This document shows positions 27,157 to 34,891 of a stretch of DNA of 64,000 nucleotides, in pieces; positions within the stretch are counted from its first letter, which is position 1; every line of letters begins with the position of its first letter. Made by a program: the position numbers and the translations under genes. Source of the DNA: Propionivibrio sp. (lineage in GTDB: Bacteria; Pseudomonadota; Gammaproteobacteria; Burkholderiales; Rhodocyclaceae). The notes under the pieces are model-generated. The model did no database searches, was not told where the DNA came from, and saw nothing but the letters and a program-made list of their open reading frames with translations. The stretch spans positions 8,546 through 72,545 of the forward strand of contig JAVBSG010000008.1 of the NCBI GenBank assembly GCA_031547245.1. The letters are read 5' to 3'.

Positions 27157-30100
27157 ATGAAACAAAAAATGCGCGTGCTGTGCAAAAACCTTCCTGGAAT
27201 TGGGATCAGCGCCGGCATCGTCTGTCTCTCTCTGTCGATGGCCTGTGCTGCCCAGACCCAATTGGCCGATTTGCCTTTCAGTTCTGCGCCACCTGCCCCG
27301 GTCAATCTGATTTTTACCCCGTCGGTTGAATTTCCGACAGCGACTGTTTATACGCACAAGGACAGCAGCTATACCGCCAAGAACGAGTATCTCGGCTATT
27401 TCGATCCCAACAAATGTTATGACTACAATAAGTCGGAAAAGTATTTCGAGCCGGTGGCAATGGCGGGCACCAATCACAGTTGCTCGGGGAGTTGGAGCGG
27501 TAATGCTCTCAATTATGGAACGATGAGCGGCATCGATCCTTTCCGCTGGGCATTGACGGGAGGATTCCGCTCGATCGACACTGCATCGACCGGCAATACG
27601 GTTGCCGGCCGTGGTGTTACCGTGCTGCAGCGTGCCTATCAGAACAGCCGCTCCGCGATGGGTAGTCGCACGATCCCCGGCACGAGCGGGAGCAATGTGA
27701 CGATCACCAATTCTTCATTAGGACTCAACGTAAATATCGGAGGAACCGCTTATCAGGCAGCCGTGCGCGTTTGCGATGACCGTAAAGGCTCAAGCTACCT
27801 CGAAGCGAACTGCACTCCCTATAGCACTCCCGACGGTGTAATCACGTTCAAACCCGTCGGGCTGATTCAGCGTTATGAAGACAAGATGCGTTTCGGCGTG
27901 TTCAGTTATCTATTTAATGAATACAATCCGGACACCGCACCTATTCTGGACGGTGGCGTGATGCGAAGCCGCCTAAAAAACGTCGGATCATCCAAATGGG
28001 ATGGAACCAACAATCCAGCCTATGAATGGTCTACAACAACGGGGGTGTTTGTAAACAATCCGGATACAGCTGACGCCGCGGCGAGTGGAGTATCCAACAG
28101 CGGGGTTATCAACTACCTGAACAAGTTCGGTTTTACCAGCGGAGGTTATGAAGTCTATGACCAGCCTTCGGAAATGGTGGCGGAAGCCTTGCGCTACCTG
28201 ATGAAAAAACCGGCTACGGCTTCATATTATCAACGGGCAAATGACGATCCTCGGCGTAAGGACGGTTTTCCGGCCATTACCAACTGGGAGGACCCCATCA
28301 TCAATGCCTGCCAGCGAAATGCCATTCTCGGCATCGGCGACGTGAACACCCATTATGAATATACCTTCGGAGATTTGCCGTTTGATCCGGTGGCATGGAC
28401 AAAAAAACTCAATACCTTCGAGGGCACTACGGGCCTGGAAACGGCGCGTTGGAACAATGGCGGGTCAAACATGATGGCTGGCATCGCCTATTATGCGCAT
28501 ACTCAGGACATACGTCCCGATATCGTCAAGTCAGTAAAGATGACACTTGACTTTTTTTGGGTCGACGTCATGGAGCCTTCAGGAAGAGGAGTGTCTGGGC
28601 ATACGGAATATGTCAACAAAAATCAGTACTGGCTGGCGGCTAAATATGGCGGTTTCAAGGATGAAAATGGTGACGGAGTTTTTACGCCTGGAAAGGATAT
28701 CTGGAACGGCCAGGGGCGCCAATATGTCGGTTACAACCTACCGGACAATTACTATCCAGCCTCAGATCCAAAGGCCATGGTTAACGGACTTGAAGCTGTC
28801 TTCAGTCAGATCGGCAGTTTGAAGGCAACCGGAAGAGGAACAGGAATTATTTGGCAGCAGGAAGGCGGTAACTCGGAAATTTTCAGTGCAAATTACGACA
28901 CGACCAACTGGTCGGGCGATGTAGTCGCGTTGAAGAGCGTTGCTGTCAACTCAAATGACACCATTGGTGGGACATTTGCCTGGAGTGCCGCAGAAAAAAT
29001 CGATGCCCAGGACTGGAATACCGGTCGGAAAATTGTTACCGGTAAGGTTGTTGATGGCGTCTTTTCAGCCGTTCCATTCCGTTTGGCGAATCTGACTGCG
29101 GCGCAAGCAGCGACATTCGATGCCAATCCCATCAACCAGCAGGCAATCCTTGAGTACTTGCGTGGTAGCCGGAATGGAGAGGGAAGTGTTTTCCGCAAAC
29201 GCGATCATGTGCTTGGCGATATTGTACATTCGAAACCAGTGAGCGTCGGCGCGCCTAAAGAGCCTTATCTGGAAGTATTGAATCCTGGTTATCTGGCGTT
29301 TTGGGAAGCGAAAAAAAATCGTAAGGGAATGATTTATGTGGGCGCCAACGATGGCATGCTGCATGCCATTGAGAGTACGACCACAGGAACGACGGGAGGC
29401 CAGGAGCTATGGGCTTACATTCCATCTTTTCTGTACTCCGGGCCGAGCAACCCTTCCACCCCGGAAGTCGATGGGCTGCAAGCGCTGAGTAAATCCAGCT
29501 ATACCCATCACTATTATGTCGATGCAACGCCCACGGTGGCTGACGTCGATTTCGATCGTATTGGTACGGCGTGGAAGGAGTCGACGGATGCAGAATGGCA
29601 TACACTGCTGGTAAGTGGCCTGGGTAAAGGGGGGAAAGGATATTTCGCCATCGACATCACCAACCCGGGCTCAGTTGCTACAGAGTCAACTGCCGCCGGC
29701 AATGTTCTGTGGGAGTTTTCGCCTCCGGACATGGGTTTTACCTACGGACAGCCCGTAGTGGTCAAAACACCGGCATGGGGTTGGGTGGTCATTGTCACGT
29801 CTGGCTACAACAATGCCTCCGGCAAAGGGATTCTGTACATTCTCAATGCCAAGACGGGTGCCTTGATTAAATCGGTCGATACCGGAGCAGGGTCTCTGAC
29901 GGCTCCGGCCGGGTTTGCCCATATCTCTGCGTTTATTGCGAGAGAGGGCGACTATATGGCTACACAGGTCTATGGTGGCGATTTGTTGGGCAACCTGTGG
30001 CGGTTTGATCTGACGGATGCAGATGGCGACGTCAAGGTTCACAAACTGGCCAGGCTTACGGATGCCAAAGGTCAAGCGCAACCGGTGACCGTCTATCCTA

Positions 30101-30798
30101 CGATAGGGAGACCCAAGGGCGGTACCCCCGATCATCGCTGGGTTTTTGCCGCAACGGGGCAGTTTTTGTCAACGAGCGACATTACGGGGGGCTCGGGTAC
30201 ACAAACTCAGACCATGTATGCCATCCGCGATGGTGGGCAATTCTCGACATTGCCCGATTCGGCGGCAACAATTACGAGAGCTGACCTGACGCAATTAACC
30301 AATCTTGAAACCGGCCTTACGGGTACTCCGGATAAGGGGTGGTACTACGACATGACTGGTGTGTTGGCTGGAGCCACAGAGCGCGTGTGGACACCGATTA
30401 CGATGGCATCGGGTTATGTCGTGTGGACCGGAAGCATGCCCTCAGTGCCGGCGGATTCCTGTTCCAACTCCATGCTGGGTGGAATGAGTACCATTTATGC
30501 AGTGAATGTCGAATCGGGAGCTTCGGTTCTCACTGACGTTGATGGAAATGCCGTGCGCTCTATCCAAGTCAATTCATTGGTCGTTGAAACGCAGGTCGTG
30601 TTTGACGAGAATGGCAAAGCGAGATTAATCATAGATGCCGGCCAGGGGCAGGCCGCAACTGGAGCCGAGGGGGAAACGAGCGATGATGAAAACAACTGCA
30701 AGAAGTTAGGTTTTTGTCCAAGCATACCATCAGGTGTTAATCTCCCTCAAGATAAACGAGCGGCGCCTGGCGTGATCAATTGGCGTTTGGCCAATTGA
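27157..30798 (+). CDS. pilY1: Type IV pilus tip-associated adhesin/biogenesis factor PilY1
   Basis: 1213 aa. Signal peptide. Large N-terminal region plus C-terminal PQQ/beta-propeller-like PilY1 domain. GGAG SD upstream. Confidence 0.85.
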   Translation: MKQKMRVLCKNLPGIGISAGIVCLSLSMACAAQTQLADLPFSSAPPAPVNLIFTPSVEFPTATVYTHKDSSYTAKNEYLGYFDPNKCYDYNKSEKYFEPVAMAGTNHSCSGSWSGNALNYGTMSGIDPFRWALTGGFRSIDTASTGNTVAGRGVTVLQRAYQNSRSAMGSRTIPGTSGSNVTITNSSLGLNVNIGGTAYQAAVRVCDDRKGSSYLEANCTPYSTPDGVITFKPVGLIQRYEDKMRFGVFSYLFNEYNPDTAPILDGGVMRSRLKNVGSSKWDGTNNPAYEWSTTTGVFVNNPDTADAAASGVSNSGVINYLNKFGFTSGGYEVYDQPSEMVAEALRYLMKKPATASYYQRANDDPRRKDGFPAITNWEDPIINACQRNAILGIGDVNTHYEYTFGDLPFDPVAWTKKLNTFEGTTGLETARWNNGGSNMMAGIAYYAHTQDIRPDIVKSVKMTLDFFWVDVMEPSGRGVSGHTEYVNKNQYWLAAKYGGFKDENGDGVFTPGKDIWNGQGRQYVGYNLPDNYYPASDPKAMVNGLEAVFSQIGSLKATGRGTGIIWQQEGGNSEIFSANYDTTNWSGDVVALKSVAVNSNDTIGGTFAWSAAEKIDAQDWNTGRKIVTGKVVDGVFSAVPFRLANLTAAQAATFDANPINQQAILEYLRGSRNGEGSVFRKRDHVLGDIVHSKPVSVGAPKEPYLEVLNPGYLAFWEAKKNRKGMIYVGANDGMLHAIESTTTGTTGGQELWAYIPSFLYSGPSNPSTPEVDGLQALSKSSYTHHYYVDATPTVADVDFDRIGTAWKESTDAEWHTLLVSGLGKGGKGYFAIDITNPGSVATESTAAGNVLWEFSPPDMGFTYGQPVVVKTPAWGWVVIVTSGYNNASGKGILYILNAKTGALIKSVDTGAGSLTAPAGFAHISAFIAREGDYMATQVYGGDLLGNLWRFDLTDADGDVKVHKLARLTDAKGQAQPVTVYPTIGRPKGGTPDHRWVFAATGQFLSTSDITGGSGTQTQTMYAIRDGGQFSTLPDSAATITRADLTQLTNLETGLTGTPDKGWYYDMTGVLAGATERVWTPITMASGYVVWTGSMPSVPADSCSNSMLGGMSTIYAVNVESGASVLTDVDGNAVRSIQVNSLVVETQVVFDENGKARLIIDAGQGQAATGAEGETSDDENNCKKLGFCPSIPSGVNLPQDKRAAPGVINWRLAN

Positions 30799-30862
30799 TC
30801 ATAATTTGGCAGTAGTTTGAAAAAGGAATGGTTTTTTTCCCGAAAACGAAAGTTTTGCCGCA

Positions 30863-30893
30863 GATACCACCCTCCTATAGGGAGGGGGGTATC
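30863..30893. terminator. 31-nt near-perfect palindrome (GATACCACCCTCC-TATA-GGGAGGGGGGTATC), a probable bidirectional terminator between convergent pilY1 and the Zn-ribbon gene
   Basis: Inverted repeat read directly. T/A-rich flanks on both sides. Confidence 0.5.
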
Positions 30894-30930
30894 TTAATCA
30901 TGTCATCCATGATTCCCGGTATTCGCTCCT

Positions 30931-31332
30931 TCATTGACCTGAAGTTAACAGCAACCATTCCCTCCAGCGGCGCCGTGCTTCCTCCTTGCTTTCACGTTCT
31001 TTGGCGCGGCAAGGGGCGCAACGCCTGGCCGTGGTGAAACGCTCGCCCCTGGCGACTTCGTACCACCAGCGCTGGCGCTTGGCTGTCCATACGCATTCCG
31101 TTCCACAATCGATGCAGCGGAACGGCAGATCTTCGTAGTAGCCGCGGCGGACGAACAGTGGATCCCCATAGCTGTTGCTCGGACGAAGCCATGTAGGATC
31201 TACAGCAATGGCATTTTTTGGCGGCATGGGCGGAGAATCGTACAGCCAGTGCATTGCCGATTGCTCGTGGCGTGTACGGCGCGCGGTCTTGATTTCCTGT
31301 CGCCGCTGTTTTCCGCTTTTGTATGCCTTCAT
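30931..31332 (-). CDS. Small zinc-ribbon protein (CxxC-x25-CxxC) with an Arg/Lys-rich C-terminal tail; last gene of the putative sigma54/RtcR-dependent operon
   Basis: 133 aa from MKAYKSG (GGAAG 5 nt upstream; the upstream in-frame ATG at 31347 has no SD). CIDCGTEC...CAPCRAKE four-Cys pattern. Basic tail RRRWREW. Confidence 0.5.
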   Translation of the reverse strand: MKAYKSGKQRRQEIKTARRTRHEQSAMHWLYDSPPMPPKNAIAVDPTWLRPSNSYGDPLFVRRGYYEDLPFRCIDCGTECVWTAKRQRWWYEVARGERFTTARRCAPCRAKERESKEEARRRWREWLLLTSGQ

Positions 31333-31430
31333 CTTTCTTCCATCCAATAACGTGAAATTCCAGTGAAATGGAGTATCCAGGCATCTCCGCAGGGGAACGC
31401 AGGGGGCGTGAGCCCCCTGCGGGAAATGCG

Positions 31431-32570
31431 TCAGTTCGGCCGGATCTGCACCAGGCCGTTCAGCACCTGATCCAAGCCGCCGAAGACCGAGATGCGGTCG
31501 ATCCTTTCCGCCACGCGCTCCAGAGTTTCCAACTCCTTCAGGCGCAGGGCGGTCGGGTTGTCTTCCATCACCTTGGCCGTGTTGAGCAGCGAGCGCGTTG
31601 CGGCGGTTTCTTCCCGGCGGCGGATGACGTTGGCTTCCGCAGCCTTGCCGGCTTCCACCACCTGCGCGAGGATCGCCTTCATCTCGCCTGGCAGGATGAT
31701 GTCCTTGACGCCGATGCTGCCGACATCGAGGCCGAAGCCGTCGAGCTTTTGGGCGATATGCGCGCTCACCACTTCGTCGATGAGCAGCTTGTTTTCCAGC
31801 AGTTCATCGAGGTTGCGCGTTCCCACCGCTGCCCGCAGGCCGAACTGCAGCTCGCGGTAGAGGTGTTCGACCGGTTTGCTGAGTTTTTCGTAAGCGAGCA
31901 GCACGTCCGCGAAGCGCCACGTCGCCGCGAGGTTGACGCGCAGGCCGACTTTGTCGCGGGTCAGGATTTCCTGGCCGCTGACCTCCATCGCCTGCCAGCG
32001 GGTGTCGACCTGTTCGACCTGCACGTCGCGGTTGAAGCGCCAGTAGGCTTCAACGCCAGGCTGCAACAGTTCCTGCACGCGGCCATCGACGCGCAGCAGG
32101 CCGACGTGGTAGGCAGGCACCTGGGCGACCAGCAGGCCGCTCATGCCCATCAGGGCCTGTCCGCGCAGCGCCGGTTGCAACAGCCGCGAAGCCATTTCGC
32201 GGGGCAGGGCGCAGCCCTGGCGCAGATCGACCCGTTCAAGGCGATGTCTGATCAGGCCCAGCCAGAAAAAACGGCGCGATGCAGGCGGCAGTATTTCGAC
32301 CAGCACGTCGTTCTCGTAACGCAGGCCGGCTTCGTCCTCGGTCAATTCCATGCAGACGAAATACTTCCCGGCGGTTTCCGGTTCGTTCTGACGCAGGTAA
32401 TCGACGAGAGGGACGTCGAGCATGGGCGCATCCAGCTTCCAGACACTCAGCGTCAGTTCGTTCAACGGATCGAAGAAACAGTGGCGGCCGGCATCCAGAA
32501 TGCGTTCGAAATCGCCTTTGCGCAGCAGGGCGGCACGTTCGTTCTTTTTGACGATGAATCTTTTCAGCAT
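31431..32570 (-). CDS. SPFH/band-7 (slipin/stomatin-like) domain protein with an uncharacterised ~150 aa N-terminal extension
   Basis: C-terminal half has the SPFH core and an ALRLKELETL-type helix typical of band-7 proteins. ATG preceded by AAGGAGAAAAA. Confidence 0.8.
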   Translation of the reverse strand: MLKRFIVKKNERAALLRKGDFERILDAGRHCFFDPLNELTLSVWKLDAPMLDVPLVDYLRQNEPETAGKYFVCMELTEDEAGLRYENDVLVEILPPASRRFFWLGLIRHRLERVDLRQGCALPREMASRLLQPALRGQALMGMSGLLVAQVPAYHVGLLRVDGRVQELLQPGVEAYWRFNRDVQVEQVDTRWQAMEVSGQEILTRDKVGLRVNLAATWRFADVLLAYEKLSKPVEHLYRELQFGLRAAVGTRNLDELLENKLLIDEVVSAHIAQKLDGFGLDVGSIGVKDIILPGEMKAILAQVVEAGKAAEANVIRRREETAATRSLLNTAKVMEDNPTALRLKELETLERVAERIDRISVFGGLDQVLNGLVQIRPN

Positions 32571-32861
32571 TTTTTCTCCTTGATTTCCGGCTTTTGTAAG
32601 CCATTGTCGTACTTGCCGGTTATCGCCGGTCCGGCGGGCGCTTTGGGCGGCTTACGCGTGAGGGCGTCCGGCGGAGCGCCGTGGATTCCAACTCCTTCCT
32701 GGCAGCGCATCGCTGCAGGTCGGCGGTAATCCCTGGCTTCCTGCCGAACGCCTTGCCGCAAAGCGGTCCGAGGCGCCGGGCCGAACCGGCGGCGGGTGCT
32801 TGCGCATGCCGCAACCGGCGGGTGCTGCTGGTGGTACTGAACACTGTCGTTACAGGACAGT

Positions 32862-32933
32862 TGGAACGGGAGTCGAACCCGCGACCCATCGGTTATTAGC
32901 CGATCGCTCTACCCGACTGAGCTATCCAGTGGC
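32862..32933 (-). tRNA. tRNA-like element B: near-complete cloverleaf with an imperfect acceptor stem and non-canonical anticodon loop CUAAUAA (anticodon position reads AAU). Degenerate/pseudo-tRNA or tRNA mimic
   Basis: Minus-strand read 5'-GCCACUGGA UA GCUC AGUCGGGUA GAGC G AUCGG CUAAUAA CCGAU GGGUC GCGGG UUCGACU CCCGU UCCA-3'. D-arm, anticodon arm and T-arm (GGGTTCGACTCCC) are canonical. Only 4 of 7 acceptor base pairs form and there is no genuine encoded CCA. Confidence 0.45.
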
Positions 32934-32986
32934 TGCACGCAGGGAATCGAACCCAGACATTCAAGATGCCCAACCAAGGCATGCAG
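32930..32986 (-). ncRNA. tRNA-like element A: minihelix-like RNA (7-bp acceptor-like stem CTGCATG/CGTGCAG + T-arm CTGGG-TTCGATT-CCCTG + encoded CCA) lacking D and anticodon arms
   Basis: Minus-strand read CUGCAUG-CCUUGGUUGGGCAUCUUGAAUGU-CUGGG UUCGAUU CCCUG-CGUGCAG-CCA. Its 3' CCA abuts/overlaps the 5' end of element B. Could be one composite Y-RNA-like transcript with B. Confidence 0.35.
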
Positions 32987-33126
32987 ATATCGCTTTCCCG
33001 CGACGGCGGCATACAGCGGAACGACAAACGCCATCTTTCCAGGATGGCATCAGGCTCCGATGCACCGGCGGGGTGGGAACCCCTTGCCCGTCGGCCATTG
33101 CCGCAAGTTGGCGACGATCTGTTCAT

Positions 33127-33143
33127 TGCGAAAGGCGTGCCAG
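33127..33143 (-). promoter_or_regulatory. Sigma54 (RpoN) -24/-12 promoter (CTGGCACGCCTTTCGCA) reading leftwards into the tRNA-like elements, SPFH and Zn-ribbon genes
   Basis: Minus-strand TGGCAC-N5-TCGCA. GG and GC separated by exactly 10 nt (consensus TGGCACG-N4-TTGCW, one mismatch in the -12 box). Sits about 140 nt upstream of the divergent rtcR start. Confidence 0.5.
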
Positions 33144-33283
33144 AAGTGGGAAAGAATCTGTGCTATTTTTCAACGTATTGAATTTATTTGTGTTTGTTCT
33201 CGTTCGAAGGCGGAAGAAAAAACAGTAGTTCCTCAATATGAGATAAAATTGGATAATTATTTATCTGAATTTATATAAACCTT

Positions 33284-34891
33284 ATGAAGAAAATCGTGGT
33301 CATCGGTTTCCTTGGTACGCAGTTGGACTATGCGGGAAAAGGCAGCACCCGCTGGGAAAAATGGCGTCCGTCGATCGCGCTCTGCCAGCAGGAGGATCTG
33401 GTCGTGCATCGCCTGGAACTGATTCACGATCCGCGCAGCCGCGGCCTGGCCGAGCGCGTCGTCCTGGACGTCGCCAGCGTGTCGCCGGAGACCGAGGTGC
33501 GCCGCAATGAGATGGAGCTGCGCAACCCCTGGGATTTCGAGGAGGTTTACACCACGCTGCACGATTTTGCGCGCAACTACCCCTTCGACCCCGAGAACGA
33601 GGAATACCTCATCCACATCACCACGGGAACGCACGTCGCGCAGATCTGCTGGTTCCTGCTGGCCGAAGCGCGCTATCTTCCGGCACGGCTGCTGCAAACC
33701 TCGCCGCCGCGCAAGAAGGAGATTGCCAACAGCATCGGGTCCTACGAAATCATCGACCTCGACCTCTCGCGCTATAACCAGATCGCGCAGCGCTTTGCCC
33801 GCGAGCATGACGACAGCGTGTCCTTCCTCAAGTCCGGCATTGCCACGCGCAACCCTGCCTTCAACCGCATGATAGAACGCATCGAACACGTGGCCGGCCG
33901 TTCGCGCGCGCCGATGCTGCTGGTGGGGCCTACCGGCGCAGGCAAGTCCTTCCTGGCGCGCCGGGTGTATGAGCTGAAACGCCAGCGGCAGCGGCTGGCC
34001 GGGCGCTTCATCGAGGTCAACTGCGCCACGCTGCGCGGCGATTCGGCGATGTCCAATCTGTTCGGCCATGTCAAAGGGGCGTTTACCGGTGCGCAGAGCG
34101 AAAGGCCCGGGCTGCTGCGTTCTGCCGACCTGGGGCTGCTTTTCCTCGACGAAATAGGCGAGCTTGGGCTTGACGAACAGGCCATGTTGCTCAAGGCCAT
34201 AGAGGAAAAGCGCTTCTTCCCCTTCGGCGGCGACCGCGAGGCGGAAAGCGATTTCCAGCTCATCGCCGGCACGCACCGCGACCTGCGGCAGTGGGTGAGC
34301 GAAGGGCGTTTCCGCGAGGATCTTTACGCCCGCATCAATCTGTGGACTTTCATGCTGCCGGGCTTGTCCGAGCGGCCCGAGGATATCGAACCCAACCTCG
34401 ATTTCGAGTTGGAGCGCTTCGCCCGCGAAGACGGCCAGGTGGTTCGCTTCAACGTCGAGGCCAGGCGCCGCTACCTGTCCTTTGCCGCCTCGCCGCAGGC
34501 GCGCTGGCAGGGTAATTTCCGCGAACTCGGAGCCTCGTTGACGCGCCTGGCCACGCTAGCCGAAGCGGGGCGGATTACCGAAGAACTGGTTTCGGAAGAA
34601 ATCGTCCGCCTGCGTGCAAGCTGGAGCATAGATGGTGAAGAAGATGCCGTGGCATCGCTCGCCAGGCAGTTTCCCGGAGTTTTTTCCGATTCGCTCGATC
34701 TCTTCGACCGGTGCCAGTTGAACGCCGTGATCGATGTCTGCCGGAATTCGTCCAGCCTCTCCGAAGCCGGTAGAAAGCTGTTTGCCGTATCGCGGCAGGA
34801 GAAAAAACAACCCAACGATGCTGACAGGTTGCGCAAGTACCTGGGCCGCTTCGGGCTGACGTACGAAATCCTGGCTGACGAACAATCCTAG
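33284..34891 (+). CDS. rtcR: RtcR-type sigma54-dependent transcriptional regulator (N-terminal CARF-like domain, central AAA+ with GAFTGA, C-terminal HTH)
   Basis: N-terminus MKKIVVIGFLGTQLDYAGKGSTRWEKWRPS...HITTGTHVAQICWFLLAEARYLPARLLQTSPPRKKE is characteristic of RtcR. Walker A GPTGAGKSF. GAFTGA loop (VKGAFTGAQ). C-terminus ...NDADRLRKYLGRFGLTYE. Confidence 0.88.
   Translation: MKKIVVIGFLGTQLDYAGKGSTRWEKWRPSIALCQQEDLVVHRLELIHDPRSRGLAERVVLDVASVSPETEVRRNEMELRNPWDFEEVYTTLHDFARNYPFDPENEEYLIHITTGTHVAQICWFLLAEARYLPARLLQTSPPRKKEIANSIGSYEIIDLDLSRYNQIAQRFAREHDDSVSFLKSGIATRNPAFNRMIERIEHVAGRSRAPMLLVGPTGAGKSFLARRVYELKRQRQRLAGRFIEVNCATLRGDSAMSNLFGHVKGAFTGAQSERPGLLRSADLGLLFLDEIGELGLDEQAMLLKAIEEKRFFPFGGDREAESDFQLIAGTHRDLRQWVSEGRFREDLYARINLWTFMLPGLSERPEDIEPNLDFELERFAREDGQVVRFNVEARRRYLSFAASPQARWQGNFRELGASLTRLATLAEAGRITEELVSEEIVRLRASWSIDGEEDAVASLARQFPGVFSDSLDLFDRCQLNAVIDVCRNSSSLSEAGRKLFAVSRQEKKQPNDADRLRKYLGRFGLTYEILADEQS

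Follow-up and report, generated by a model that had tools for sequence, protein, structure and literature searches.

Genes and features of the locus

The stretch of DNA analysed here, 64,000 nucleotides (nt) from a contig of Propionivibrio sp. (JAVBSG010000008.1, positions 8,546 to 72,545) and called the window throughout, contains a gene for the regulator RtcR and, divergent from it, a sigma54 promoter followed by a structured RNA with tRNA-like parts and genes for an SPFH/Band-7 protein and a zinc-finger protein. It is a known kind of operon of the Rtc RNA-repair systems in a rare, ligase-less form. An earlier note on this DNA had proposed a unit under RtcR and sigma54 with a tRNA-mimic RNA, an SPFH gene and a zinc-finger gene, and all of these parts were found, as follows.

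33284-34891, forward strand: rtcR, 535 amino acids (aa), with a CARF-like sensor domain, a sigma54-activating AAA+ domain (GAFTGA) and a C-terminal helix-turn-helix
33171-33183, reverse strand: candidate site for integration host factor (IHF), ATTCAATACGTTG, its centre about 60 nt upstream of the estimated transcription start
33142-33127, reverse strand: sigma54 -24/-12 promoter, TGGCACGCCTTTCGCA, of the form TGGCAC-N5-TCGCA, divergent from rtcR
32615-33116, reverse strand: structured leader, about 500 nt long and preceding the SPFH gene; the 'b7a' RNA, broadly taken
31431-32570, reverse strand: gene for a slipin-type SPFH/Band-7 protein, 379 aa, with an N-terminal β-repeat region (residues ~1-145), an SPFH domain and long C-terminal helices
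30931-31332, reverse strand: gene for a zinc-finger protein, 133 aa, zf_Tbcl treble-clef (PF13451, 7.7e-10), with CxxC...CxxC

The CARF domain of the regulator covers the full Pfam profile (PF06956, 5.1e-89, residues 2-185), the AAA+ domain matches PF00158 (Sigma54_activat, 7.6e-49) with GAFTGA seen in the translation, and the whole protein scores 846 bits with the NCBIfam equivalog NF038308, whose cutoff is 650. The PADLOC model RtcR--CARF_AAA_HTH also matches the product at 2.4e-266, and no PADLOC model other than that for RtcR matched at the locus. On the other side of the intergenic region, TGGCACGCCTTTCGCA is the sole match to TGGCAC-N5-TYGCW in the 64 kilobases (kb), where 0.26 would be expected by chance. 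For comparison, 86 related loci were assembled (Rhodocyclales, Burkholderia, Ralstonia, Pseudomonas including P. aeruginosa PA4582/PaFlo8, and others), and in 62 related loci a strict pattern finds the same element at the equivalent position, 450-570 nt upstream of the SPFH start. The transcription start of the SPFH-side unit is estimated to lie near 33116 on the reverse strand, and a scan of 30700-33400 found no sigma70-like promoter. Both the regulator and the divergent sigma54 element thus stand as the earlier note had them, the element being kept in relatives and the scanned range offering no independent sigma70 start.

The candidate IHF site has one mismatch to WATCAANNNNTTR, which we take to be the IHF consensus, and its ATCAA-N4-TT block is kept in a four-way intergenic alignment. 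The sequence upstream of the promoter was also searched for RtcR sites, and all it yielded was an inverted repeat of 17 nt, itself weak, and a direct repeat of 9 nt.

The SPFH protein matches Pfam Band_7 over residues 150-321 (1.2e-27) and stomatin over residues 187-374 (7.7e-24). Its first 150 residues, previously described as a novel domain, have no significant Pfam or PDB sequence match; they are not unique to this gene, however, as the region is common to all orthologues. They contain two weak copies of the SPFH-opening β-hairpin motif (hhalign E 7e-5 and 0.014), and longer homologues of 509-591 aa (P0005, P0196, P0201, P0205 and P0228, one of them from Xenorhabdus miraniensis) carry one to about three extra N-terminal units. 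Since the unit, of approximately 70-150 aa, is repeated in these longer homologues, the N-terminal region behaves like an array of repeats that varies in length, with a copy number of 2 to about 5 among homologues. The AlphaFold2 model depended on alignment depth, with a mean predicted local distance difference test score (pLDDT) of 51.8 for 10 close sequences and 84.5 (about 90 across the N-terminal region) for 63 sequences including the long repeat variants. The latter model consists of two β-rich repeat units, the SPFH domain and helices at 295-337 and 339-362.

No hydrophobic segment was found in the protein, the highest 19-residue Kyte-Doolittle mean being 1.24. Membrane-anchored SPFH scaffolds such as stomatin, HflK/C, flotillin and QmcA share with it the SPFH domain and, behind it, coiled-coil helices of the kind that build rings or cages; they have an N-terminal transmembrane helix or hairpin and often an NfeD partner, whereas the window protein is without an anchor and its sole operon partner is the zf_Tbcl protein. 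Because a hydrophobic segment is lacking and β repeats stand in place of the anchor, the membrane location implied by the earlier label of membrane-scaffold protein is unsupported, and the protein is better taken for a soluble oligomer. The major vault protein, which makes up the eukaryotic vault particle together with vault RNA and is built of repeats, an SPFH-like shoulder and a cap helix, gave the longest alignments, yet a lower core score than stomatin, and the repeat signal of the window protein is weak. From the predicted model, the layout may be vault-like, with N-terminal β repeats and no membrane anchor.

The zinc-finger protein, recognised earlier by its CxxC...CxxC pattern, is not only a treble-clef protein by its Pfam match but also basic, with 29 lysine and arginine residues against 16 aspartate and glutamate residues. 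Its 74 homologues are encoded on contigs that also carry SPFH homologues, and they adjoin the SPFH gene where the context is readable.

The structured leader RNA

In an intergenic alignment, conservation runs from the promoter nearly to the SPFH start codon, and over 83 loci the conserved blocks cover about 500 nt. The pair of tRNA-like elements at 32862-32986 that had been noticed before is present, with exact coordinates and with both modules found, but it is only the middle part of this much longer conserved leader, which comprises the following domains, all on the reverse strand.

33005-33096, reverse strand: 5' domain, with closing helix 33096-33094/33007-33005 and hairpins P2 (33091-33064) and P3 (33063-33013)
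32933-32986, reverse strand: tRNA-like module 1, with a 7-base-pair (bp) acceptor-like stem (32986-32980/32939-32933), a linker and a T arm (32956-32940), as in the minimum free energy fold
32862-32928, reverse strand: tRNA-like module 2 (b7a-tRNA proper), a cloverleaf with a 4-bp acceptor and D, anticodon-like and T arms, without CCA
32843-32861, reverse strand: conserved hairpin ACUGUC-(7 nt)-GACAGU, directly 3' of module 2 and joining it to the 3' domain, also in the minimum free energy fold
32615-32819, reverse strand: 3' domain, an interrupted rod of about 200 nt with closing helix 32819-32814/32620-32615 (GCCGGU/ACCGGC)
Inner helices of the 3' domain, reverse strand: long helix 32791-32775/32639-32624, distal helix 32763-32752/32663-32652, and a variable tip

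Every domain of the leader has covariation support, and for the 5' domain, the stem of module 1, module 2 and the 3' domain it is in excess of shuffle and slide controls. For the 5' domain, folded with RNAalifold from 35 sequences, 93.1% of cells are paired (slid controls 38-51%) and there are 146 double-change cells against 53 in shuffles, none of 500 shuffles being as high; these counts also take in the T arm of module 1. The 3' domain, folded from 47 sequences, gave 92.7% paired cells (slid controls 32-43%) and 250 double-change cells against 83 in shuffles, again with 0 of 500 as high. It ends about 33 nt before the Shine-Dalgarno sequence, which stays unsequestered. The hairpin between module 2 and the 3' domain appears in most alignment rows with the stem variants CUGUC/GACAG, CUGCC/GGCAG and AAGCC/GGCUU.

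Module 2 was returned as a cloverleaf unprompted by RNAalifold on 68 non-redundant sequences. Its cells are paired in 98.9% of cases (34-47% in slid controls), and its 157 double-change cells, against 42 in shuffles, were equalled by none of 500. The acceptor stem, of 4-6 bp in orthologues, switches between UGGA/UCCA and UCGA/UCGA, and all five pairs of the anticodon-like stem covary. The stem of module 1 differs in sequence by clade while its complementarity is kept (74 loci), with 7 of 7 pairs formed in 29 loci against 5% of shuffled controls. The range of module 1 gives a weak mascRNA-like Rfam match; at the Pseudomonas loci the module is a complete second cloverleaf, and there ARAGORN calls two tandem tRNAs.

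Taken by itself, module 2 could pass for an ordinary tRNA gene, or a tRNA pseudogene lying there by chance, as it scores 51.2 bits with the Rfam tRNA model and is called 'tRNA-Ile AAT' by ARAGORN. Such a reading is hardly credible in view of the acceptor of 4-6 bp (7 bp in a genuine tRNA), the missing CCA and a position that is the same, inside a conserved sigma54 leader, in over 70 genomes. In many orthologues the anticodon-like loop is a GAAA or UUCG tetraloop, in others it has up to 7 nt or more, and ARAGORN assigns about 16 different 'anticodons' between genomes, besides impossible ones of 2 and 4 nt. Because loop length and sequence vary, the 'anticodons' differ and the acceptor is short, module 2 is not a decoding tRNA.

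Searches of the leader with Rfam 15 returned no family above chance except tRNA; low-threshold matches to models such as those of microRNAs and frameshift elements were put down to chance. No Y RNA in the window reaches its Rfam gathering score, the YrlA model giving 18.5 bits against 69. The likeness to YrlA-type Y RNAs drawn in the earlier note therefore holds as an analogy and not as a match to the YrlA model; unlike YrlA, the window leader lacks a Ro-binding stem, stands first in its transcript, and combines two tRNA-like modules with extra domains.

A C-rich motif, (A/G)CCC(C)GCCGG, occurs four times on the reverse strand of the leader (33074-33061, 32824-32808, 32798-32780 and 32641-32624); one copy lies in the 5' domain and the other three in the 3' domain, each on the strand of a helix. 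It could be a protein-binding or tertiary-contact element.

Related loci and the missing ligase genes

Relatives of the SPFH protein number in the thousands in databases, the best 120 being 73-100% identical. When one genome per species was scanned, an SPFH orthologue turned up in at least 575 of them; among the best 80 are Rhodocyclales, Thiobacillus, Burkholderia, Paraburkholderia, Ralstonia, Roseateles, Chitinimonas and many Pseudomonas, and a scan of IMG/VR gave a single locus. Among the related loci, 74 have at least 3 kb of downstream sequence and 76 have enough sequence upstream, and the downstream and upstream counts given here refer to these. The usual order is rtcR divergent from the sigma54 promoter, then the tRNA-like leader, SPFH, (zinc finger), rtcB, (HEAT), (rlaP) and (rtcA), where brackets mark genes that are not always present. 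RtcR is encoded divergently in 64 of the 76 loci, the leader has, in every locus examined, the orientation of the SPFH gene and is contiguous with it, and rtcB lies 3' of the SPFH gene in 64/74. The zinc-finger gene is found in 23/74 and stands between SPFH and rtcB in 21/74, and RlaP (37/74), RtcA (35/74) and a HEAT protein (8/74) are encoded further downstream. In Dechloromonas, Azoarcus KH32C and several metagenome-assembled genomes (MAGs), for example, rtcR is separated by about 650 nt of non-coding sequence from a divergent SPFH-rtcB-(RlaP)-rtcA series. The window SPFH protein is 62-83% identical, over its full length, to proteins that precede rtcB.

As rtcB follows the SPFH gene in most relatives, the window carries the front half of a common operon. 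The earlier note had RtcR drive a variant set 'rather than rtcBA' and looked to recurring SPFH and zinc-finger partners; the partners do recur, but before rtcB, and so they do not mark a new regulon. A tRNA-like RNA, an SPFH gene and, in about a third of loci, a zinc-finger gene are the ordinary front of an rtcB operon. Judged from gene order, the window appears to differ from it by the loss or relocation of the distal rtcB-(rlaP)-rtcA genes.

That rtcB, rtcA and rsr are absent from the window, as had been claimed, was borne out by the searches. No RtcB, RtcA, RlaP or HEAT protein was detected in the 64 kb by tblastn with the proteins of relatives (all E > 0.1), and no TROVE/Ro60 domain was found in the operon or in the ten long window open reading frames (ORFs) scanned (466-897 aa), which are housekeeping genes such as ComEC, TctA, GlnD and IMPDH. 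With no rtcB or rtcA, no TROVE protein and no YrlA in these scans, the locus is neither a canonical rtcBA nor an rsr-yrlBA-rtcBA operon.

The ligase-less form is rare. In 10/74 loci rtcB is missing 3' of the SPFH gene, and in only two of those ten, an Azoarcus MAG (L047) and Chitinimonas lacunae LMG 29894, is the zinc-finger gene kept. The closest relative of the window locus is a 2.3-kb metagenome contig (L087), whose SPFH protein is 94% identical and where the gene after the zinc finger is not rtcB. Between the two, the ratio of nonsynonymous to synonymous divergence (dN/dS) is 0.06 for SPFH at a dS of 0.54 and 0.19 for the zinc-finger gene, and module 2 differs by one substitution despite a synonymous divergence of approximately 40-50%. 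The RtcR, SPFH and zinc-finger ORFs, the promoter and all RNA domains are intact in the window. Such strong purifying selection on the retained genes indicates that the locus is not simply decaying.

Several related loci show further variation. In the Azoarcus MAG (L047, 1649-9784) the zinc-finger gene is followed by genes for a MoxR-like AAA+ ATPase, a 192-aa protein without Pfam match and a DUF2201 metallopeptidase/VWA-like protein, and an rtcB copy lies beyond rtcR, convergent with its 3' end. A second, divergent RtcB paralogue beyond rtcR, besides the operon copy, is encoded at L006 (5013-6221), L022 (4209-5399) and L040 (3425-4633), with an identity to the operon-type RtcB of 58% in the first two and 74% in the third. 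In Dechloromonas sp. ARDL1 (L001/L008, 6864-9150) an IS21-family transposase and IstB occupy the usual place of rtcR, while the sigma54 promoter, the leader and SPFH-rtcB-rlaP-rtcA remain. Loci of the Roseateles type (L049, 5713-9131; also L045, L053 and L055) have the tRNA-like element and SPFH without rtcR and rtcB; the element follows genuine tRNA arrays (nine tRNAs in L049) and an HNH endonuclease gene, and the gene 3' of SPFH gives a sub-threshold match to a ClpP-like SDH protease. Here the same RNA and protein seem to be paired in another setting, which may be mobile.

Two further elements lie near the end of the window operon.

31398-31421, reverse strand: G+C-rich perfect hairpin of 10 bp, CGCAGGGGGC-TCAC-GCCCCCTGCG, without a U tract, read from the sequence
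30863-30893, reverse strand: candidate terminator, a 12-bp hairpin interrupted by one bulge, 38 nt past the zinc-finger stop codon and with a T-rich stretch behind it

The first sits in the 98-nt gap between the SPFH stop and zinc-finger start codons and may serve in processing or stability, or be a repeat like the repetitive extragenic palindromes. The second was found by eye; a simple scan returned no intrinsic terminator on the operon strand. A gene for a PilY1-type protein (27157-30798, forward strand; 1213 aa, β-propeller 2.5e-37) converges on the operon and ends 132 nt from the zinc-finger stop codon, which places the rtc module between a type IV pilus cluster and a housekeeping block of rhomboid, UPF0149-SEC-C and SMC genes. 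This context was not found in the related loci examined.

Interpretation of the ligase-less operon

The abstract of Burroughs and Aravind's 2016 study is said to count 'SPFH/Band-7 modules' with 'a novel tRNA-like molecule' among the cofactors that might act as scaffolds. P. aeruginosa PA4582/PaFlo8, which is 65% identical to the window SPFH protein, is embedded in an rtc locus under RtcR (rtcR-PA4582(PaFlo8)-rtcB-PA4584-rtcA). A preprint (bioRxiv 10.1101/312249), in a passage citing Burroughs & Aravind (NAR 2016), describes a b7a-tRNA and a Band-7 protein adjoining RtcB. Operons of this type share with the window the divergent rtcR, the sigma54 promoter, the tRNA-like RNA and the orthologous SPFH gene, and many of them the zinc-finger gene as well; they are defined, however, by an adjacent rtcB, whereas the window has no rtcB, rlaP or rtcA downstream. 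The Salmonella rsr-yrlBA-rtcBA operon resembles the window in its RtcR/sigma54 control and in a tRNA-mimic RNA co-transcribed with a ring- or cage-type protein, which is a Ro60/TROVE protein there and an SPFH protein here. With E. coli rtcR/rtcBA the window shares the RtcR architecture and the divergent sigma54 promoter, but the E. coli operon is without the RNA, SPFH and zinc-finger module and the window is without rtcBA.

We regard the locus as probably an RtcR-controlled Band-7/b7a-tRNA Rtc operon which has kept its accessory half and lacks its enzyme half (rtcB, rlaP and rtcA) in cis. Its membership of this class is supported by the identity of the parts, the synteny, the promoter at the same position, the covarying RNA and an SPFH fold with oligomer-forming relatives. 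In the mechanism that would go with it, the CARF-like domain of RtcR would sense RNA fragments ending in 2',3'-cyclic phosphate, as in Salmonella, where RtcR is activated by tRNA fragments with such ends. RtcR would oligomerise and open the promoter at 33142-33127, probably aided by a bend induced by IHF, and the transcript would start with the leader of about 500 nt, in which a 5' domain of three helices is followed by the two tRNA-like modules, the hairpin and the 3' rod of 200 nt, and go on with SPFH and the zinc finger. Enzymes of tRNA processing that recognise the acceptor and T-arm mimics may free the leader, and the leader or its processed core could then join a soluble SPFH ring or cage, in which the basic zinc-finger protein may or may not take part, as Ro60/Y RNA and the processing of YrlA suggest by analogy. 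The resulting ribonucleoprotein particle (RNP) might hold or present damaged tRNA-like substrates, as is thought for Ro60 and Y RNA. In most relatives RtcB from the same transcript would act on this RNP platform; at the window locus the platform may use an RtcB encoded elsewhere, or serve a purpose of its own, for instance the sequestration of broken RNAs.

Some points weigh against this view. The cited passage of the preprint (bioRxiv 10.1101/312249) states that the b7a-tRNA had not been validated experimentally, and no experiment is known to show a separate b7a RNA species or its binding to the SPFH protein. Deletion of PaFlo8 left growth, motility, biofilm, secreted factors and oxidant survival unaffected. 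In E. coli, RtcA and RtcB themselves are reported to be needed for RtcR to be activated, so an operon truly without both might not be inducible. The contig of the closest relative spans only 2.3 kb, and its genome could hold rtcB elsewhere. Finally, since the leader lies in the 5' untranslated region (UTR) with no terminator-like site before the SPFH gene, a purely cis role is possible.

The last point underlies the main rival, in which the leader would be only a cis-acting 5' UTR, serving as a sensor, decoy or attenuator that is, for instance, cut or bound under RNA damage, and not part of an RNP in trans. Its place between promoter and first gene and its constant contiguity and orientation with SPFH are what this rival would expect. 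However, known leaders need far less than 500 nt, five domains that covary independently and two tRNA mimics, the 3' domain closes in a way that leaves the Shine-Dalgarno sequence free, and the Y RNAs of Salmonella are co-transcribed in their operon, yet act in trans. We consider a leader acting in cis alone rather unlikely. It is less probable still that the locus is a decaying remnant, on its way to loss after deletion of rtcB-rlaP-rtcA: the rarity of the form (10/74 without rtcB after SPFH, two of these with the zinc finger) and the lack of rtcB and rtcA in 64 kb agree with decay, but the three ORFs, the tRNA-like module and the promoter are intact, and the low dN/dS values come from a comparison with a relative that has the same gap.

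A distinct RtcR regulon, in which a membrane-scaffold response replaces RNA ligation, would also account for a window without rtcBA, and homologues of RtcR are known to control other gene sets, such as those of CoCoNuT systems. In such defence superoperons RtcR-type CARF regulators drive genes other than rtcBA, whereas no McrBC, CoCoNuT or restriction genes lie at the window locus. The same RNA, SPFH and zinc-finger genes precede rtcB in 64/74 related loci, the window RtcR is at equivalog level and 64-83% identical to the RtcRs of rtcB-bearing loci, and the SPFH protein is without a membrane segment, all of which make a separate regulon very improbable.

It is also conceivable, though doubtful, that the leader, at about 500 nt, is a hitherto unrecognised large structured RNA and more than a b7a-tRNA, and that it forms, with a vault-like cage of soluble SPFH protein and the basic treble-clef protein, an RtcR-inducible RNP with a ligase-independent job, for example the capture or quarantine of broken tRNAs or ribosomal fragments. 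Were this true, it would explain why the module is under purifying selection without rtcB and rtcA. The multi-domain leader and an SPFH protein that has no membrane anchor but N-terminal repeats of variable copy number may go beyond the account given in the cited passage of the preprint.

As far as that passage goes, the Band-7/b7a-tRNA branch of Rtc RNA repair has been predicted by comparative genomics only. A ligase-less locus splits the 'cofactor' half of the operon from the 'enzyme' half and offers a simple system for the function of the former, and the map of the RNA, together with the model of an anchor-less, repeat-bearing SPFH protein, provides concrete constructs for binding, processing and cryo-electron microscopy studies. 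If the RNP idea is true, the family would supply a second bacterial RNA-cofactor particle beside Ro60/Y RNA, with a layout that recalls the vault.

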